Below, one piece after another: positions 426-9,145 of a stretch of 64,000 bases of DNA; the first letter of the stretch is position 1, and each line of letters begins with the position of its first letter. Both the position numbers and the translations under genes were made by a program. The notes under the pieces are model-generated. The model saw nothing but the letters and a program-made list of their open reading frames with translations, had not been told where the DNA came from and ran no database searches. This DNA comes from Bradymonadia bacterium (GTDB lineage Bacteria; Myxococcota_A; Bradymonadia; UBA7976; UBA1532), in NCBI GenBank assembly GCA_046290225.1, contig JBKAGE010000070.1:1-64000 (forward strand), given 5' to 3'.

Positions 426-851
426 CTACGGCACGTACACCAAGTGGATGACGAAGCGATAGGTGCTCCCGCGCTCGTACACTCGAATGTTCAACACCAT
501 GTCGCTACACCCGGACTCCTTTGTCCAGAGGTCCACAAACACCTCCCAGTAGCTCCCCATCCACTGCGACACTGAGGTACCCCAGGTGTCCTCAGGTAGA
601 TCAACGAGAGTCTCACCATATGCAGCGATGTACGATTCGATATGATCTGCTGTGTACTCGTCGATGACATCAACACATGGAACCCTACGGCGAAGGCTGT
701 AATCCCCTGATACGAACGCCCTCACGATTGCTTCGAAGACAGGCCGCCAACCCGAAGCTACTGGTTGTTCCTGGTCCTCATCCTTAACGACTGGGACATC
801 AGGCTTGTGGTTGTGGTGCTTCGTCACGATGGCTACTCTCCCCGGCCGCAT
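426..851 (-). CDS. Hypothetical protein (small acidic, immunity-protein-like; true start may be about 10 codons downstream)
   Basis: 141-aa ORF with a protein-like C-terminus, YGETLVDLPEDTW..S...W....W.V.VDLWT.ESG.SD.VL. Confidence 0.7.
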   Translation of the reverse strand: MRPGRVAIVTKHHNHKPDVPVVKDEDQEQPVASGWRPVFEAIVRAFVSGDYSLRRRVPCVDVIDEYTADHIESYIAAYGETLVDLPEDTWGTSVSQWMGSYWEVFVDLWTKESGCSDMVLNIRVYERGSTYRFVIHLVYVP

Positions 852-1169
852 ACCTACCCATCACGAGGCCAGTGCGGCCACCTTCTCTTCGAAGGGTCTG
901 GGGGCGCAAGACGATGGGGATGGGGCTCTGGTAAACTTGGTGCGATTCAATACGCATACCTTCATCGGTGCTTGGAAGAGATGCTGCATACAAGAGGTGG
1001 GCCCTGGGATTACACCCGAACTCGATGTCTTCAATCATGCCGCCCTCCCGTCCAAGCCACTCCTCTGACCCGGAGCTGTTGATGTTCTATGGCCTACTCT
1101 GCCATTTGGTCAGCATCCGGCTGGCCCATATATACCAAAACCGGCCACCCCTCGTGGATATGAGAGTCG

Positions 1170-1514
1170 TTACAGAATCGTCTGAACTGGGGCTTTTGCC
1201 CTCACCGCAACGAAGGCACTTTCATCACCATCTTCAATCTCGAAGTCCACTTCGATGCGACCCTCGTTGACCAAACGAACTTCGCCTTCTCCCTGCACCT
1301 GCTCGCACTCCCAGGCTCCATTCCAGTTAAACGACAGTCCATCTTTCCATGTGGCTGTCACCTGCACCTGAGCCACGAGGTAGTGCATTCGTAGTTGGTC
1401 TTCGGCTCCGGTAAAGGAGATCAGCGCTGGACCCAAAAGATCGAGGTCGTCGTCCACCCAGGCACTGGTCTCGACGATCCGCCACCAGCCTCGTAAGCCA
1501 TCGGGGATGTTCAC
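1170..1514 (-). CDS. Hypothetical small beta-rich protein
   Basis: 114 aa, with G.WRIVE...W..DDLDLLGPA.ISF and F.W.G..E...V.G.G...L...G.I motifs that I recognise from mobile-region hypotheticals. Overlaps the upstream stop (coupled). Confidence 0.75.
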   Translation of the reverse strand: MNIPDGLRGWWRIVETSAWVDDDLDLLGPALISFTGAEDQLRMHYLVAQVQVTATWKDGLSFNWNGAWECEQVQGEGEVRLVNEGRIEVDFEIEDGDESAFVAVRAKAPVQTIL

Positions 1515-1999
1515 TTTACACGCTCCAGCACCTTTTTACCCTTCAACCGCTGTACCCATCGCACCGCTGCGTCACCTCGGGATCGGGTTGTAAGTCGAAC
1601 GGTCCCGTCGGGGCGAAGGACAATGTCAGTCTTCATGCAGCGGCCTCGAATGTAGTCCGCCGTGTACTGGAGTTCGCCGCCCACATAGCGCAGCCCCTGG
1701 AGGAAGTCTGCCACCGTAAGCTGATCTACCTGGACAAAGGATGTGTCTGAAATGCCACGAGAGCGGCTATCGGCAAACGACAGTGTGGCCAAGCAGAACA
1801 TGAACCCCAATCCGCCCTGCTCATGATCCTCTGACCGCCAAGTCTCTTCGCCATCCTCTTCCACTTCACCAAGGGCCAGATCGATCTGCACCCAGACTCC
1901 ACTTTGAGTCTCTTCGACTTTGGTCTCAACAACATCAAAGCTCACCAGGGCACCTGCCTCGATGAGGACATGTCCGGCCAGCAACTCGCTCTCCTTCAA
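1511..1999 (-). CDS. Hypothetical protein
   Basis: 162 aa, with a GGAGG RBS before the TTG start and a 4-nt overlap with the next ORF. Confidence 0.72.
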   Translation of the reverse strand: MKESELLAGHVLIEAGALVSFDVVETKVEETQSGVWVQIDLALGEVEEDGEETWRSEDHEQGGLGFMFCLATLSFADSRSRGISDTSFVQVDQLTVADFLQGLRYVGGELQYTADYIRGRCMKTDIVLRPDGTVRLTTRSRGDAAVRWVQRLKGKKVLERVK

Positions 2000-2464
2000 C
2001 GCAACGCCTCCGTCAGTCGGTTGGACAGCATCGTGTCAAGGAAGTATGTCAGGTTGTAGTGGAGATCAAGCTGTCAAGGACGACAGTCTGTAGGTTCATG
2101 ACTTGGGGAGCTGGCTTTGGCGGGGGTATCCGTCAGGCGTTTCGTGATCTGGTAGGACGAAGTGATACGCTTTGTGACGGAGCTGCGTTGTGGTCGGCGG
2201 CGTACCTACCACATGACTGTCAGGATGAGACGCTTGGAACGTGATCTTGGGCGGCCACCCTACCCCATCGCCCAGCTCTCGGCCTGAACAGGCCCGCACG
2301 ACCGCACAACCATCACTCCCCTGATGGCACCCTGTACTGGAACGATAGGGCAAGCAGGTCTTCGTTTGCCGGAACCCAAGACCAGACACAGGTTGTTCAT
2401 CGCGCAGTACATTCAGGCTGAGCTGAGAGACTGAGCTGAAGCCTCGTCGCACCGTGCGCCCGAT

Positions 2465-3208
2465 TCAGCGATAGCGCTCCTGGTAAAAATAGACCCGCCC
2501 TCTCAATTCCGGAAATGCTCTGAGGATGCCCTGCTTCACATCTGCAGAATCAACTCTGGCGCCATAGGGATACTCTTCGCAGAAGAGCACGGCGATCTCC
2601 TCAGGCGAGATGCCTTGCCCTTCGCCGAGTTGATTGTATGTGTTGAATTCGGTGCCAGTGAACACACGATGAAGCCAGAAGGTTCTTTCGCCTCGGTACT
2701 CGCACTTGCTCTCCCGAGCCTGTAGAAATCCCGAGCAGAGCAGCTTCACCATAGAGGCCAGCACACCCACATCTCCAGGCTTCACAGGATCATCACCCAT
2801 GTATCCAATCAACTCTGCCCATTGACTCGCTGAGAGCTCCAACGTCGGAAGCGTACGGCCGACAGGGCGAACGCCAAGGGCCGCTGCATACCCTTCTCTA
2901 CGCTCCGGACTCAGGCGAAATACACGACACATAGAATCGAGCACCACTCGATTCATCCACGACGCGTCGAGTTGACGCATACTCAGCTCGATACAGCCCT
3001 CTTCGTAAGAGATGTGCAGAGTGTCTGAACTACGCTCGAACGACCAGCTCGCATCTGTTGCCGTCAACACGAACTCTGGCAGGTGTTTCGTCAGGTTCCG
3101 TATGAAATATCGTGCTCGCTTCAGCTCGACGTCGCCGACGATGGCAGTCCCTTGCAGGTATGTGGATGAGGGGTCCGAGCTTGAGCCGGCGGCATCATGC
3201 TGATTCAT
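2465..3208 (-). CDS. Hypothetical protein
   Basis: 247-aa ORF with an ATG start and balanced composition. No recognised motif. Confidence 0.65.
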   Translation of the reverse strand: MNQHDAAGSSSDPSSTYLQGTAIVGDVELKRARYFIRNLTKHLPEFVLTATDASWSFERSSDTLHISYEEGCIELSMRQLDASWMNRVVLDSMCRVFRLSPERREGYAAALGVRPVGRTLPTLELSASQWAELIGYMGDDPVKPGDVGVLASMVKLLCSGFLQARESKCEYRGERTFWLHRVFTGTEFNTYNQLGEGQGISPEEIAVLFCEEYPYGARVDSADVKQGILRAFPELRGRVYFYQERYR

Positions 3209-3340
3209 GGAGTTCTCTTCTGATTCGAGAGCGAGTGTTGAGCACTCACGTGCATTCTACTGCCCTTCGGGCCACCTTGGCCCCCTGCAAGCCTTCCGAG
3301 GAGAAAGGCAGGAAGAGCCAGCAGCTGTTTGGAAAGAGAA

Positions 3341-3482
3341 TGGTGGCGGACCCTGGACTCGAACCAGGATATCTTTTGCGTGTCAGATCACGTGGGCGGC
3401 GACCCTCGGGCCGCGCCCCATCTGGCACGAGATGAACATGTGGATGTAACACATGGCGTTTTCCAATTTTCGCCAGTCCGCC
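3341..3482 (-). ncRNA. 142-nt tRNA-like RNA (class II, Leu-like frame) with a 69-nt variable arm and a non-canonical anticodon loop
   Basis: Acceptor GGCGGAC/GUCCGCC plus ACCA. U8-G9. D arm GCG-AAAAUUGGAAAA-CGC. Anticodon arm AUGUG-UUACAUC-CACAU. T arm CCUGG-UUCGAGU-CCAGG. The 69-nt insert (3437-3369) folds as a long interrupted hairpin. Confidence 0.9.
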
Positions 3483-3492
3483 ATTGCCCAGC

Positions 3493-3520
3493 ATCCTAGC
3501 GCCGGGATTTCTCTCGTCAA
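3493..3520 (-). promoter_or_regulatory. sigma70-type promoter of the tRNA-like gene
   Basis: TTGACG (3520-3515), N16, TAGGAT (3498-3493), then a GC-rich discriminator. The -10 box lies 10 nt before the mature 5' G, as in stable-RNA promoters. Confidence 0.75.
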
Positions 3521-4003
3521 AACTGAAAGCAATCCAGCTACTGCCGGCTACGCATTACGCAGCGCTTGCTCAACGGCTCAGGCGGTCGTGGATCCAAAGA
3601 GAAAGGGCCAGATGGTCGAAACAAAGGGGAAGCGTTTCGTCCATCTGGCCCTGTACGTGCGCTCTCGAACCTGACGAGCACCTGCCCGCCGCCCCCACGC
3701 CCCACCCAATGACGCTCCAAGATGCACTCGGTGATGCTCGAAGACGTTCTGGGCTCGTCGTGCTCTTCTACGAACGCGTTGTCAGCAATGCCCACCAGCC
3801 TGCCTGACATCTCCAAACATCGGCACTGTCCCAGATTGAATCACCAGGTGGGCGTGCAGTGACCCAACTTAAAGAAGCCAACCTCAAATGGGTCGAACCA
3901 AATGAGGTGCCCTCAAGTGAGCCAGACCTGAACAGGTCAGGTCGGTCCGTGAGCAGCCCCTTCAAAGGGTGAGCGCACCGTGATCCAACAGGTGAGCCTG
4001 TCG

Positions 4004-7000
4004 CTACTGATTGGCCACCTGGCCTGAAGGCCCCTCAGCCCCTTCACCCCCGAGGCCCACCAGCGTGTTGCTGGAGTTCCCGCCGTCACCGCCAGGGCCG
4101 CCCGTGGATATGTCGCCTGCGAGTCCGAAGTCGTTCTGGGCTGCATAGTCCGGAGCCAGACCATTCCCGTTGGCCACGAAGACATCGAAGCTCGCACCGC
4201 CCTGGCCACCACCGCCGCCGCCGCCGTGGCCTCCTCGACCCCCGGTGCCGCCAGGGGCACCAGCGAAAGAGCAGAATGGCATGAACAACACCGGGCCTGC
4301 AGGCCCACCATCACCACCCGCGCCACCCTCGCCACCGCCACCGCCATTGCCGCCGCTGCCGCCCTGGCCACCGAGGCCGCGGTTGAGCAGGTTGTCGGTG
4401 ATCAGGGGGAAGCCCGCGACGTTCCCCGGCCCTGCGCCCGAGAACGCTACGAAGATCGCGAAGGAGCCACCGCCGCCGCCGCCGCCCAGGCCAGCGATGC
4501 CCTGACAGCCACCACTGCCGCCGCCGCCACCCGTAGCCCCGAAGTCGTAGACCTGCTGGGGCAACAACCAGAGCACCTCCACCCCACCTGCTGCGCCACC
4601 GCCACCACCGCCACCGCCCGGCTGGCCGTCAACGCCGCCGTTGCCAGTCACGCCAACCCAGTGACCGTTTTGAGTCAGCCCGAAGCCTTCGGCTGCGCCG
4701 TTGCCGCCGCCGCCATCGACACCCGATCCACCATCGAGCCCCGGGAACGGATCAGGCGTGCCAAACTCACTGACTGTGCAGGTGTTGTCGTCGAGAGACA
4801 CCATGTTCCAGCCGCCAAGGCCCCCAGCGGAGCCCTGAGCGCTCAGACCTGCCAGCCCCGAGCCTGCCTGAACGTCGAAGGCTGGGCAGACGCTCACACC
4901 TCCACCACCACCGTTCACTGGCGTCTGCCCACATGTGCGAGAGCCACCCAGGCCCCCGGGGCTGAAGAGGTTGCCACCCGTGGCCACGCACTGCTCGATG
5001 TCAGGGGTGGCCTCGTTGCCGTCGCTGCCGTCTACGCCAGGGAGGCCAGCATCCCCACTGTCACCGGCGACGCCGCGACCACCATCACCCGCGAAGATGC
5101 GGTTGTTGCTGATCTGCAGTGCGCTGTCGCTGTCGAGCACGTAGATGCCGTAGCTGTTCCCGGACTCGAGGGGGGACTCACCGTTGATGACGAAGCCATC
5201 GAGTACAGTGTCGATGCCGGTGATGCCCACGGCGCGCACAGCAGCTTTGTGGGCGCCGGGCTCGGTGTCTCGACCGTTGATGAAGGTCACGTTGAGCTCG
5301 GCGTCACGGATCCAGGTGGTGCGCTGGTGGCCACCGAGCACACTCACACCGGTCTGCATGATCACAGTCTCTCGATAGACCCCGTCGCTCACTCGCACGC
5401 GGCTGCGGTTCGACGCCACAGCTTGCTCGATGCCGAGGTTGATGCGGGCGCAGGGGCGCAGCACTGCACCACAGTCTGCAGCCTCGACCCCACCGTTCTC
5501 TGGTGTAGCCACGTAGATGGCGTCGTCGTCGATCTCGAGCTCACAGCCGTTGGAGGCGCGGCCGTCTGCGTCGAGGAAGCCGTTGATGCAGTCGAAGGCA
5601 CACTGGGCGGCGCCGCCTGAGGCGTCGCAACGAGGCACCACGCCGAAGGTCTCGGGGTTGGGGCTCCACTGAGCCACGCAGTCGGTGCCACAGGCGCCGC
5701 AGTGGCTCAACGTGACATAGCGACCCTGGTCATCAGTGTAGTCCTCGTCGGTCTGGCCATCGCAGTCGTCGTCCTGGAAGTCGCACAGCTCGTCATCGGC
5801 GCCGGAGACGATCTCAGCGTCGCAGATCAGCGCACCTGCGGGGTTGTCGGGGTTGCACACCTGCACCCCCGACCGACGACACAGACCCTGGCCCACCTCA
5901 CAGGCGGTGTTCAGACCTGGGTAATCTTCATCGGCAGTGCCGTCGCAGTCATCGTCCAACCCATTGCATGTCTCGGCTCCGCCCTGTCCAGCCTCTGCGC
6001 TGCAGACGGTGGCGCTGCCATCAGGCAGGCAACGCTGGACGCCGCCGCGCTGACACACGCCGAGGCCGGCGCTGCATGGCGTGTTGAGATCAGGGAAGGT
6101 CTCGTCGAAAACGCCGTCACAGTCATCATCCAAACCGTTGCACAGCTCTTCGATGGGGGCACCGGCCAAGGCATCACAGATGACCGCGTCACCTGCAGGG
6201 CTGCAAATGCGCACGCCACGGCTCAAGCACTGACCCACGCCGACGCTGCAGGTGGTGTTCAGTCCGACGAAGCCCTCGTCGGTGTTGCCATCACAGTCAT
6301 CGTCCAACCCATTGCACAGCTCCTCGACAGGCTGACCCGCTACAGCGTTGCAGGCTACGCCGTCGCCTCCAGCGTTGCACCCGAGCACACCGTTGCGTGA
6401 GCACGCGCCCACGCCTTCATTGCAAACCTGGCCCAGGGTGGGGAACGCTTCGTCAGTGGTGCCATCACAGTCGTCGTCCAACCCATTGCACACCTCGCCT
6501 GCAGGCAAGCCAGGCTCGGCGCTGCACACCACCCCGTCACCGTCGGGGCCACACAACGTAACGCCTGTGGCTCGACACTGGCCCACGCCAGCAGCGCACG
6601 CCGTGTTCAGGCCAGGGAAGGTCTCGTCGGCCTCGCCGTCGCAGTCATCGTCCAACCCATTGCAGGCCTCATCGGCCGGCTCGCCGGCTTCAGCACTGCA
6701 CACCACCCCATCGCCATCTTCGTTGCAGGCCTGGAAGCCCTGACGCAAACACACACCGACACCTGCAGTGCATGGCTCAAGCAAGCCCTCGAAGGTCTCG
6801 TCAGTGCCCCCATCGCAGTCGTCGTCCAATCCATTGCACAGTTCGTCCGCAGGCTGACCCGCCACAGCATCACAGATGACCGCGTCACCTGCAGGGCTGC
6901 AAATGCGCACGCCACGGCTCAAGCACTGACCCACGCCGACGCTGCAGGTAGTGTTCAGCCCGACGAAGCCCTCATCGGTGTTGCCGTCACAGTCATCGTC

Positions 7001-9145
7001 CAAACCATTACAATTCTCTGCCTGAGGTGCTCCGGGCTCCACGTTGCACTCAGTGGCGTCGCCGGCCTCAGTACAGACTCGGAAGCCTGTGCGCTGGCAG
7101 AGACCCTGGCCCACCTGGCACACCTGCAGTTTGTCGGGGAAGGCTTCGTCGGTGCTGCCGTCACAGTCATCGTCCAGACCATCGCAGCGATCGACGTCGC
7201 CAGGGGCCCCAGGCTCAGCGTCGCAGGTCACGCCATCCCCCTCGGCGTTGCAGATCTGTACGCTGGTGCGCAGGCAAGTGCCCACGCCGACGCTGCACAC
7301 CTCACTCAGGCCGTCGTAGCCTTCGTCTGGGGTGCCGTCACAGTCATCGTCAGCGCCGTTGCACACCTCGTCGGCGGGCTCGCCGGCCACGGCGTTGCAC
7401 GCCACGTCGTCGCCCTCGGCGTTGCAGGTGAGGACCCCGTTTCTCAAGCACGAGCCCACCCCAGCCTCACACACCTGGCCGAGAGTGGGGAATGTCTCGT
7501 CGGTGATGCCGTCACAGTCGTCGTCCAACCCATTACACACCTCCTCCACGGGCTGACCTGCAACGGCGCTGCACACCACGCCGTCGCCTGCGGGGCCACA
7601 GAGGGTGACGCCTGAGACGCGGCACTGACCCACACCGATGGCGCAGGCGGCGTTCAATCCAGGGAAGTTCTCGTCTGCAGTGCCATCACAGTCGTCGTCC
7701 AGCCCGTTACACAGCTCGTCAGAGGCCTCGCCAGCCACAGCGCTGCACGCTACGCTGGCACCGTCCTCGCTGCATGCCTGGAACCCCTGCCTCAGACAGG
7801 CGCCGACGCCCGCGGTGCACGGGTCGAGCAAGCCGTCGAAGGTCTCGTCGGCGCTGCCATCGCAGTCATCGTCCAGCCCGTTGCACAGCTCCGCTCCCGG
7901 CTCTGCAGCAACGGCGCTGCACTCCACCGAGGCACCGTCGTCACTGCAGCGGGTGGCGCCTGGACGCTGACACGCACCAACGCCGGCGCTGCAGATCTCG
8001 CCGAGGCCGTCGAAGCCCTCGTCGGTGTTGCCGTCGCAGTCGTCGTCCAAGCCATTGCACAGCTCGTCCGTGGGCATACCCAGCACGGCATCGCAGATGA
8101 CCTCGGCACCATCTTCACTACAGACCTGCACACCCGCTTGCCGACAGGCCCCCTCCCCTACGAGGCAGACCTGACCGAGATCGTCGAAACCCTCGTCGGT
8201 GGCGCCGTCACAGTCATCGTCGAGGAAGTTGCACAGCTCCTCCATGGGCGCAGGAGCGGTGCAGACAGGCTCCTCAGATGCCTGAGTACACACCAGGCGA
8301 CCCGTGCACTCGATATCTCCGTCGTCGGTCTCGACCGTACGGGCGCAGACCTCGCCGATGCCGGGGATGTCGTCGGTGAGGCCATTGCAGTCGTCATCGA
8401 TGAGGTTGCACACCTCTGGCGCGGGTGGCGCTGCGTCACAGGCCGACCAGCCCGATGCGGGATCACACGTCTGACGGCCGTAGCAGACCCCCAAATCGTT
8501 GCCCACCTCGCACAAACGCTGCTCGCCGGCGGTGTCGGGGCCACAGGTGCACGAGCCGGTGGTGGGCACACACTGATTGGGGCGGCCGTCGCCGAAGACA
8601 TCCTCGCAGGCATACCCCTCGGGACAGGCCTCGTCGTCGAGGCAATCGAGGCCGCAGACATTCTGCTCATCGACAGTGAGGCAACGCCCCGTAGGGCAGT
8701 CGCCGTCGTTGAGACAGGCTTTGCAGAGGCGATCTCCAGGGGGAAAGCAGATGAAGACCACATCGGGCTCGGTGTTCTGCACCGCCCGACAGCCCCAATC
8801 ATCGGGGCAGCCCTCATCGAGGCAGGCCTGGGAGCACACGGTGCGATCTTCCCAGGGCACACACCAGCCGCTGGCGCAGTCGAGATTGTCGTTGCAGGGC
8901 TCTTTGAACCGACCCAGGGGGGCAGAATCACCACCGGCTCCCCCAGCGCCGCCGGCGCCGCTGTTGCCACCCACCGACGCGTCGGCAATGGGCGGCAAAC
9001 CACCTCCAGCGCCACCGACGACCCCGCCCCCTGCGCTGGCATCGGCCGCCGAATCACCCGTCGAATCGCTGCTCGCGCAGCCCACGAGCCACAACAGAGC
9101 GCACATCGCCACTGCGTTCTGACGTACCCAGATCAAATCTCTCAC
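4004..9145 (-). CDS. Large Cys/Asp-rich surface lipoprotein with 16 MopE-like putative metal-binding repeats and a C-terminal beta-helix/Gly-rich region
   Basis: Lipobox LVGC. Sixteen C(N/D)xxDDDC(D/N)G units at a period of about 58 aa. PCARINLGI...RVRVSDGVYRE (DUF1565-like), then a PGRS-like tail. Confidence 0.9.
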   Translation of the reverse strand: MRDLIWVRQNAVAMCALLWLVGCASSDSTGDSAADASAGGGVVGGAGGGLPPIADASVGGNSGAGGAGGAGGDSAPLGRFKEPCNDNLDCASGWCVPWEDRTVCSQACLDEGCPDDWGCRAVQNTEPDVVFICFPPGDRLCKACLNDGDCPTGRCLTVDEQNVCGLDCLDDEACPEGYACEDVFGDGRPNQCVPTTGSCTCGPDTAGEQRLCEVGNDLGVCYGRQTCDPASGWSACDAAPPAPEVCNLIDDDCNGLTDDIPGIGEVCARTVETDDGDIECTGRLVCTQASEEPVCTAPAPMEELCNFLDDDCDGATDEGFDDLGQVCLVGEGACRQAGVQVCSEDGAEVICDAVLGMPTDELCNGLDDDCDGNTDEGFDGLGEICSAGVGACQRPGATRCSDDGASVECSAVAAEPGAELCNGLDDDCDGSADETFDGLLDPCTAGVGACLRQGFQACSEDGASVACSAVAGEASDELCNGLDDDCDGTADENFPGLNAACAIGVGQCRVSGVTLCGPAGDGVVCSAVAGQPVEEVCNGLDDDCDGITDETFPTLGQVCEAGVGSCLRNGVLTCNAEGDDVACNAVAGEPADEVCNGADDDCDGTPDEGYDGLSEVCSVGVGTCLRTSVQICNAEGDGVTCDAEPGAPGDVDRCDGLDDDCDGSTDEAFPDKLQVCQVGQGLCQRTGFRVCTEAGDATECNVEPGAPQAENCNGLDDDCDGNTDEGFVGLNTTCSVGVGQCLSRGVRICSPAGDAVICDAVAGQPADELCNGLDDDCDGGTDETFEGLLEPCTAGVGVCLRQGFQACNEDGDGVVCSAEAGEPADEACNGLDDDCDGEADETFPGLNTACAAGVGQCRATGVTLCGPDGDGVVCSAEPGLPAGEVCNGLDDDCDGTTDEAFPTLGQVCNEGVGACSRNGVLGCNAGGDGVACNAVAGQPVEELCNGLDDDCDGNTDEGFVGLNTTCSVGVGQCLSRGVRICSPAGDAVICDALAGAPIEELCNGLDDDCDGVFDETFPDLNTPCSAGLGVCQRGGVQRCLPDGSATVCSAEAGQGGAETCNGLDDDCDGTADEDYPGLNTACEVGQGLCRRSGVQVCNPDNPAGALICDAEIVSGADDELCDFQDDDCDGQTDEDYTDDQGRYVTLSHCGACGTDCVAQWSPNPETFGVVPRCDASGGAAQCAFDCINGFLDADGRASNGCELEIDDDAIYVATPENGGVEAADCGAVLRPCARINLGIEQAVASNRSRVRVSDGVYRETVIMQTGVSVLGGHQRTTWIRDAELNVTFINGRDTEPGAHKAAVRAVGITGIDTVLDGFVINGESPLESGNSYGIYVLDSDSALQISNNRIFAGDGGRGVAGDSGDAGLPGVDGSDGNEATPDIEQCVATGGNLFSPGGLGGSRTCGQTPVNGGGGGVSVCPAFDVQAGSGLAGLSAQGSAGGLGGWNMVSLDDNTCTVSEFGTPDPFPGLDGGSGVDGGGGNGAAEGFGLTQNGHWVGVTGNGGVDGQPGGGGGGGGAAGGVEVLWLLPQQVYDFGATGGGGGSGGCQGIAGLGGGGGGGSFAIFVAFSGAGPGNVAGFPLITDNLLNRGLGGQGGSGGNGGGGGEGGAGGDGGPAGPVLFMPFCSFAGAPGGTGGRGGHGGGGGGGQGGASFDVFVANGNGLAPDYAAQNDFGLAGDISTGGPGGDGGNSSNTLVGLGGEGAEGPSGQVANQ

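Follow-up and report, generated by a model that had tools for sequence, protein, structure and literature searches.

The window analysed here, 64,000 nt in length, is the start of a contig (C70) of an 8.6-Mb Bradymonadia genome that is 99.4% complete. Close to the contig end lies a genuine RNA gene on the minus strand, its first base at 3482 and its last at 3341. The initial annotation had described a 142-nt gene with a 69-nt variable region and a series of tRNA-like stems and loops, and all of these parts are in place, as set out below in the direction of reading.

3493..3520, minus strand: sigma70-type promoter-like site, TTGACG-16-TAGGAT (9 of 12); the copy in public run X1 has another -35-like hexamer at equal spacing
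3341..3482, minus strand: tRNA-Leu-type cloverleaf RNA gene, 142 nt, recognized by its fold and by near-identical copies in runs X1 and X2
3476..3482, minus strand: 5' strand of the acceptor stem with an unusual C7 (C7:G66), by pairing; found in none of 73 ordinary tRNAs
3455..3475, minus strand: U8 and Leu-type D arm of 3-4 bp (A14, A15, G18G19, A20a)
3438..3454, minus strand: anticodon arm of 5 bp with loop UUACAUC; nominal anticodon ACA at 3447-3445, U37 at 3444
3369..3437, minus strand: variable region of 69 nt, folded as a single interrupted hairpin, last base U48
3378..3383, minus strand: ACACGC, which weakly resembles the 3' motif of an RNA family associated with a Ro60-like protein
3352..3368, minus strand: T arm (C49:G65, C50:G64, U51:A63; loop UUCGAGU)
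3341..3351, minus strand: 3' strand of the acceptor stem, discriminator A73 (3344) and encoded CCA
426..3208, minus strand: low-G+C block of small uncharacterised ORFs, downstream to the contig end, listed as context with no link to the RNA implied

The minimum-free-energy structure of the 142-nt RNA is the cloverleaf itself (-60.3 kcal/mol, z -3.09, equalled by 1 of 200 shuffles), all 43 proposed pairs are standard, and the variable arm folded alone has a z of -2.5 (equalled by 10 of 500 shuffles). Pair probabilities reach 0.94-1.0 in the acceptor and T stems and mostly 0.96-1.0 in the distal arm (0.51 at G69), and are lower in the AUCU/AGAU helix (0.50-0.58) and the anticodon stem (0.43-0.75); an optional fourth D-stem pair, G9-C26, has a probability of 0.8. 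A strict cloverleaf scan gave 84 matches in the genome and none in each of four controls, consisting of the reversed genome and three local shuffles. ARAGORN makes no tRNA call anywhere in the 64-kb window, and an Rfam search with E values up to 5-10 returned chance matches only for the 142-nt RNA, not even RF00005, in agreement with the earlier view that it belongs to no described Rfam family. As standard tRNA finders and Rfam both miss this RNA, genes of its kind are under-counted.

The promoter-like site at 3520-3493 ends 10 nt ahead of G1, and from the sequence we infer that a G+C-rich 7-mer and then a leader of few nucleotides follow it. It is the sole such site within 3000-4000; because shuffles average 0.3 sites in the same interval, the promoter evidence is weak taken alone, so that of the original claim of a dedicated promoter the site just upstream stands and its weight is reduced. 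Downstream, the G+C content of the block is 0.55-0.59, as against 0.61-0.71 further on, and its small ORFs match no informative family, one of them being DUF7668; for ORF 2465-3208 no family was found. Upstream, ORF 4004-9145 (minus strand) encodes a lipoprotein-like protein of 1713 aa that contains 14 MopE-type repeats and is Gly-rich at its C-terminus.

The wider genome is well furnished with unusual tRNAs and tRNA-like RNAs. Accessory tRNA arrays grouped by amino acid occur at C37:77269-79067, C42:92366-93501, C79:72099-73132 and C20:227-1226, and include tRNAs with U37 as well as a tRNA-Thr(UGU) whose long-arm body resembles that of tRNA-Tyr. A 73-nt tRNA with a CUA anticodon and an ordinary class I body (C14:27995-28067, minus strand), which ARAGORN labels Pyl, is a possible amber suppressor or accessory tRNA. 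RNA-repair-type genes comprise two TROVE and three RtcB genes, the TROVE genes being confined to C34 and C35, contigs other than that of the 142-nt RNA. These TROVE genes are preceded by tRNA-like RNAs, three on C34 and two on C35, with non-permuted bodies of 110-145 nt and an anticodon-arm insert ending in UUACUUCG; the C34 set also has GUCCGAC. Genes and RNAs together occupy L123:6633-7090 and 8001-9767 on C34 and L124:6975-7365 and 7804-9414 on C35. Labelled tRNA only by Rfam, they are candidate Y-like RNAs.

Two public runs contain near-identical copies of the gene. In run X1, 161 nt are matched (3343-3503) with 3 differences, none listed away from contig ends; the copy departs inside the promoter spacer, identity being lost some 20 nt ahead of the gene, and its loose end offers TTGCAT at an equal 16-nt spacing, assuming a -10 box positioned as here. 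In run X2, an RNA library, 131 nt are matched (3343-3473) with a single difference, C85 to U, which sits at a bulge and leaves the fold energy unchanged; the 3' flank differs and the final CA is missing, so the encoded CCA is not kept there. The X2 contigs have a depth of 3.4 and come from a library that may hold DNA, and hence are not expression evidence, and the word shares of both runs are small and uninformative on habitat. Both copies have flanks unlike those of the window. Gene identity of 98-99% amid such flank turnover implies selection or recent transfer, and judging from these sequences the gene is probably under selection rather than decaying, as the initial annotation had argued from the intact stems.

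More distant relatives proved elusive. BLAST-type searches gave only short partial matches in 41 relatives, 28 family genomes, phages and plasmids (in phages, 29 nt of the T arm matched tRNA-Tyr in 12 records), no clear ortholog was found among 27 family and 112 class genomes, and BLAST-type, pattern and RNA-model searches of relatives, phages and plasmids yielded no ortholog at intermediate distance. Exact element patterns had no match in metagenome or viral contigs, a loose 15-nt pattern in genome contigs gave no tRNA-like locus among the 120 matches listed, and long cloverleaves were absent from two sets of viral stretches (0 of 19 and 0 of 52). Within the genome, the longest match to the RNA is 15 nt, inside the range of 14-17 nt for 20 shuffles, and no target emerged; a role as antisense regulator, one of those offered earlier, thus finds no support. 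The 3' end recurs over 15 nt elsewhere on the contig; this repeat was rejected as an att site, as it lies upstream in coding-like sequence with an E value of 0.87.

The body of the RNA speaks for leucine, its anticodon loop for something other than decoding. The leucine determinants of E. coli tRNA are A73, A15:U48, G18G19, A20a and D-T contacts, the anticodon and variable arm of tRNA-Leu being dispensable for leucine identity (PMC9976931, in part). The 142-nt RNA has the LeuRS identity set complete (A73, A15:U48, G18G19, A20a, U54:A58), which bears out the proposed Leu-type scaffold in terms of that E. coli set (PMC9976931, in part) and makes leucylation plausible; by sequence, the RNA is probably a LeuRS substrate. 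A Leu anticodon and a purine at position 37 are both missing (ACA, U37). That a purine at this position is near-universal, as had been assumed, holds for 87 of the 91 tRNA calls in the genome, three of the four exceptions being accessory-array tRNAs. EF-Tu affinity is set by pairs 49:65, 50:64 and 51:63, and C7:G66 with C50:G64 make up two of the three EF-Tu antideterminant pairs of tRNA-Sec (PMC11231383, in part). Among 73 ordinary tRNAs of the genome, C7:G66 occurs in none, U51:A63 in 2 and C49:G65 in 4. Since 8 credible tRNA-Leu genes already cover the five isoacceptors in this genome, the 142-nt RNA is a spare and not needed as a decoder. U37, the atypical 7:66 and T-stem pairs and this spare status uphold the suggestion that its role is non-decoding, and the RNA is probably unable to read codons.

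Comparison with known RNAs delimits the element further. With class II tRNA-Leu (RF00005) it shares A73, A15:U48, G18G19, A20a, the D-arm sequence and the 7/5 branch, and it differs by its 69-nt variable region, ACA with U37, C7:G66 and U51:A63, position 51:63 being G-C or C-G in all 8 Leu genes of the genome. The allo-tRNAs, selC* (PMC5389517, in part) and tRNA-Sec likewise combine a long variable arm with an anticodon unrelated to identity, and tRNA-Sec also shares C7:G66 and C50:G64; however, the 142-nt RNA has a 7/5 rather than an 8/4, 9/3 or 8/5 branch, A73 rather than G73 or U73, a Leu-type D arm and a far longer arm. Allo-tRNA identity was rejected on the acceptor branch and discriminator (PMC5389517, in part), and a Sec system on the failure to find SelB in the genome. 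The phage T4 species 1 and 2 RNAs (rnaC, rnaD) are also stable RNAs of 120-140 nt, from a tRNA cluster, and a T arm forms the end of the annotated rnaC. Neither folds, as annotated, into a cloverleaf of Leu type with a 7-bp acceptor, and the phage search detected no similarity between them and the 142-nt RNA.

At best, a functional parallel is offered by the bacterial Y RNAs (YrlA, Yrn1; partners of Ro60/Rsr), which likewise join a tRNA-like D/T/acceptor module to a long stem (PMC4201824, in part). In YrlA the termini lie in the anticodon-side stem, the acceptor is closed by a loop, GNCGAAN0-1G occurs near the 5' end, and Rsr is encoded within about 4 kb on the same strand (same source, in part). 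The 142-nt RNA, in contrast, has an open 7-bp acceptor with A73-CCA, its long stem is the variable arm, its D-arm GGCGAA is followed by AA and not G (by eye), and no Ro60 gene lies nearby in the sequence covered, which stops 3.3 kb downstream at the contig end and so falls 0.7 kb short of the YrlA distance on that side. Membership in YrlA was therefore rejected on three counts: topology, motif and gene neighbourhood. Ro60 together with Y-like RNAs has been described in phages (PMC12135203, in part), PMC7824862 (in part) mentions ROT/TROVE proteins of jumbo phages and a tRNA-like partner, and the portions of PMC7954030 and PMC11143913 consulted add nothing on such RNAs. In the literature searched, mostly the main texts of open-access papers, no report was found of an open cloverleaf with a giant variable arm.

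A family of look-alike RNAs emerged with R1, a model built from the 142-nt RNA alone. Among 27 other genomes of the family, R1 matched three tandem RNAs of 136-137 nt in a single one (G004), scoring them at 44-48 bits and an ordinary tRNA-Leu at 42.9. When run over 113 class genomes, R1 recovered its own copy only and missed the G004 RNAs, and is thus insensitive at that scale; R2, built from 7 family members, even missed the element's own copy among class genomes. The G004 RNAs lie upstream of a gene for a 629-aa protein with 1236 homologs. The model of this protein (pLDDT 90) has as its top 10 PDB matches exclusively Ro60/TROVE chains (E 4.7e-9 to 1.5e-6, TM by query 0.30-0.40, 13-15% identity), and the protein family has no TROVE Pfam match. 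Six of the 301 genomes sampled from the phylum encode the protein, as do 79 viral loci, many of these in contigs >200 kb (loci L133:681-3504, L136, L142, L293, L294, L296, L298, L326 and L406-L484). At one further locus, L295:985-1260 (G287), an ACGC-rich low-complexity repeat takes the place of the tRNA-like RNAs upstream of the Ro60-fold gene.

A strict scan detected 23 long tRNA-like RNAs at 11 of the 79 viral loci, and 32 RNAs in all could be assembled from bacteria and jumbo phages, most of them next to the gene for the divergent Ro60/TROVE-fold protein. Seven of them covary, with 93% of cells paired and 19 of 31 pairs compensated in a structure drawn from one of the seven aligned RNAs. 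The body plan consists of an intact anticodon stem, a drifting anticodon and a long variable arm: the 21 members with a 7-nt anticodon loop carry 17 different anticodons, so that relatives of the same build do show the variable anticodon for which a search had been suggested. A73 is present in 21 of the 32 and C7:G66 in 2, and ACA(C/A)G(C/U) precedes the T stem in 30. The ACA(C/A)GC and CUCG pair also occurs, by eye, on acceptor-extended and YrlA-like permuted RNAs ahead of Ro60-fold genes (L293, L294, L296), so that three topologies are known for family RNAs, namely those with a variable arm, those with an extended acceptor and permuted ones. The likeness of the family to YrlA thus extends to the Ro60-fold neighbour gene and, at L294 and L296, to the permuted form. 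Detached copies exist as well, one RNA of G085 lying on a contig other than that of its Ro60-fold protein gene. The variable-arm RNA family is apparently undescribed.

The evidence on whether the 142-nt RNA belongs with this family points both ways. The two have in common the open cloverleaf, 5-bp anticodon stem and long variable arm. R2 scores the 142-nt RNA at 51.6 bits, new members at 72-86 and ordinary class II tRNAs at up to 59.1. R3, built from the 32 members with the 142-nt RNA excluded, gives it 58.0 bits, a small margin over the top-scoring ordinary class II tRNA (54.0) and below a held-out member (75.4), and ranks it above all 51 non-member matches listed, the tRNAs among which had been chosen as top R2 scorers. 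The R3 alignment places ACACGC in register with the 3' motif of the family; the motif scores 4.8 bits, compared with 11.7-16.7 in members, and is reached by 484 of 5000 shuffles. CUC is reached singly by 857 of 5000, and both motifs in the right order by 41 of 5000, with matrices drawn from 18-19 phage members only. This stricter test is preferred to a first one (0 of 3000 shuffles, 0 of 84 viral RNAs), whose seeds had been picked after the resemblance was seen. Moreover, CUCG lies 6 nt from the anticodon stem in the 142-nt RNA and 17-25 nt in members, outside the positional range of the family, and ACAC is predicted to be paired rather than looped as in members. A cognate Ro60-fold protein was not found in the 99.4% complete genome, which gave matches to the VWA part only; the tRNA-like RNAs of its two ordinary TROVE genes carry motifs different from those of the family.

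The reading we favour, although we would put its chances at no better than even, is that of a non-decoding tRNA mimic, Y-RNA-like without being a YrlA, whose arm docks a protein: a diverged orphan of the Ro60-fold-associated family that acts in trans. The RNA would be transcribed from its own promoter and matured by RNase P and by 3' trimming or CCA addition, as would be expected of an acceptor, T and D half that is a correct tRNA. Its identity elements suggest that it is probably charged by LeuRS, and the atypical 7:66 and T-stem pairs, degenerate anticodon loop and bulk of the arm may exclude it from translation. The 69-nt arm would then be the module that docks a protein, mounted on a stable scaffold of tRNA type and comparable to the Ro60-binding stem of Y RNAs, with the tRNA half supplying processing, stability and probably leucine. 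Its origin would most likely lie among the variable-arm RNAs that accompany the divergent Ro60-fold protein, and it may act in trans on a putative RNA-quality-control or repair protein. Of the roles offered at the outset, that of protein scaffold gains evidence from the position of the look-alike family beside the Ro60-fold gene.

The alternative that survives best, unlikely as it is, is a decoy or stress tRNA in which the tRNA half acts as a sink for nucleases that attack tRNA or as a signal of RNA damage, the arm being no more than a stabiliser; the 142-nt RNA would then be akin, with the same low probability, to phage Leu-scaffold RNAs with free middles. Such RNAs are common in viral contigs, where a pattern requiring a Leu D arm to be followed after 65-95 nt by a T arm returned at least 119 stretches. 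Both acceptor and T stems close in 88 of the 120 matches listed, and among the 84 distinct viral RNAs listed U48 is present in 79 and A73 in 65, neither of which the pattern required. Rfam recognizes these loci as RF00005 only, in 20 of them. A looser Leu-scaffold pattern was found in 7 of 401 phylum genomes, including the source genome, and oversized Leu scaffolds are therefore a recurring design. The viral RNAs (L171-L289) measure 115-146 nt and have hypervariable middles, 30 of the 84 listed beginning AGUCAGG. Oversized tRNA-like units, two or more per locus, were also seen at L164:1330-1580, L327:1154-1291, L329 and L330; they follow a conserved ORF (starting approximately KLNQIIAVEK) in at least three phylum genomes, with only the RNAs seen at L330. 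The richness of the source genome in accessory tRNA arrays and repair genes would also suit a decoy. However, a canonical anticodon arm (5-bp stem, 7-nt loop) is present in none of the 84 viral RNAs listed and sets the 142-nt RNA, with its intact anticodon stem, apart from them; its arm is nearly invariant between copies; and its ACA/U37 loop matches no host anticodon loop.

It is still less likely that the gene is a dead tRNA-Leu gene with an inserted hairpin, recently spread or kept only as an integration site. The degenerate anticodon loop, the lack of a clear ortholog in the 27 family or 112 class genomes and the low-G+C block and changing flanks beyond the 3' end are what such a relic would show, but all 43 pairs are intact, identity in X1 ends about 20 nt upstream of the gene with promoter spacing apparently kept, the genome has no second copy of the arm, and the covariance-model searches for orthologs were insensitive, one of them missing the element itself. 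We regard as improbable a non-ribosomal leucine donor for an aminoacyl-transferase of Aat, Fem or CDPS type: full Leu identity alongside EF-Tu-unfriendly pairs is what a donor would need, yet no aminoacyl-transferase is present among the 7 neighbouring ORFs scanned, a 69-nt arm has no evident use, and just 21 of the 32 look-alike RNAs have A73.

A missense tRNA that places Leu at UGU Cys codons in the manner of allo-tRNAs is very improbable. The seven-nucleotide loop with U33, the intact stem and the Leu identity would permit it; U37, the atypical T stem and the size of the arm disfavour use by the ribosome, where even an arm of tRNA-Sec size can clash with the A-site finger (PMC11231383, in part). 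Recoding of UGU was rejected because TGT serves as a normal Cys codon next door, encoding 9 of 16 conserved repeat cysteines of the adjacent MopE-repeat gene. An intron-containing pre-tRNA spliced to about 85 nt is scarcely credible, as the fold lacks a 3-4-3 bulge-helix-bulge and the ACA/U37 loop would remain after removal of the arm, despite the RtcB ligases of the genome and the true anticodon-loop insertions of phages, one of them apparent in a tRNA-Leu(UAA) at L174.

Returning to the protein-docking mimic, it is enticing to extend it to a chromosomal cargo-arm tRNA, rather doubtful as this extension is: a scaffold chargeable by LeuRS and excluded from EF-Tu, with an exchangeable docking arm, which would have left a Ro60-type operon to act in trans and would tie an RNA-quality-control complex to leucine charging. 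If this were true, a single docking element would have been attached to tRNA bodies in different ways, by grafting onto the variable arm, onto the acceptor ends or onto a permuted form. From the look-alike family, the divergent Ro60-fold protein, which is widespread in jumbo phages, gains candidate RNA partners in three topologies, and a natural tRNA with a 69-nt arm allows the tolerance of LeuRS, EF-Tu and the ribosome to be probed. The Y RNAs known so far have a permuted layout, and most of them cannot be aminoacylated. Judged by its sequence, an open, CCA-ended version with Leu identity could be aminoacylated, and a chargeable version would make the purpose of the tRNA module of Y RNAs (PMC4201824, in part) directly testable.
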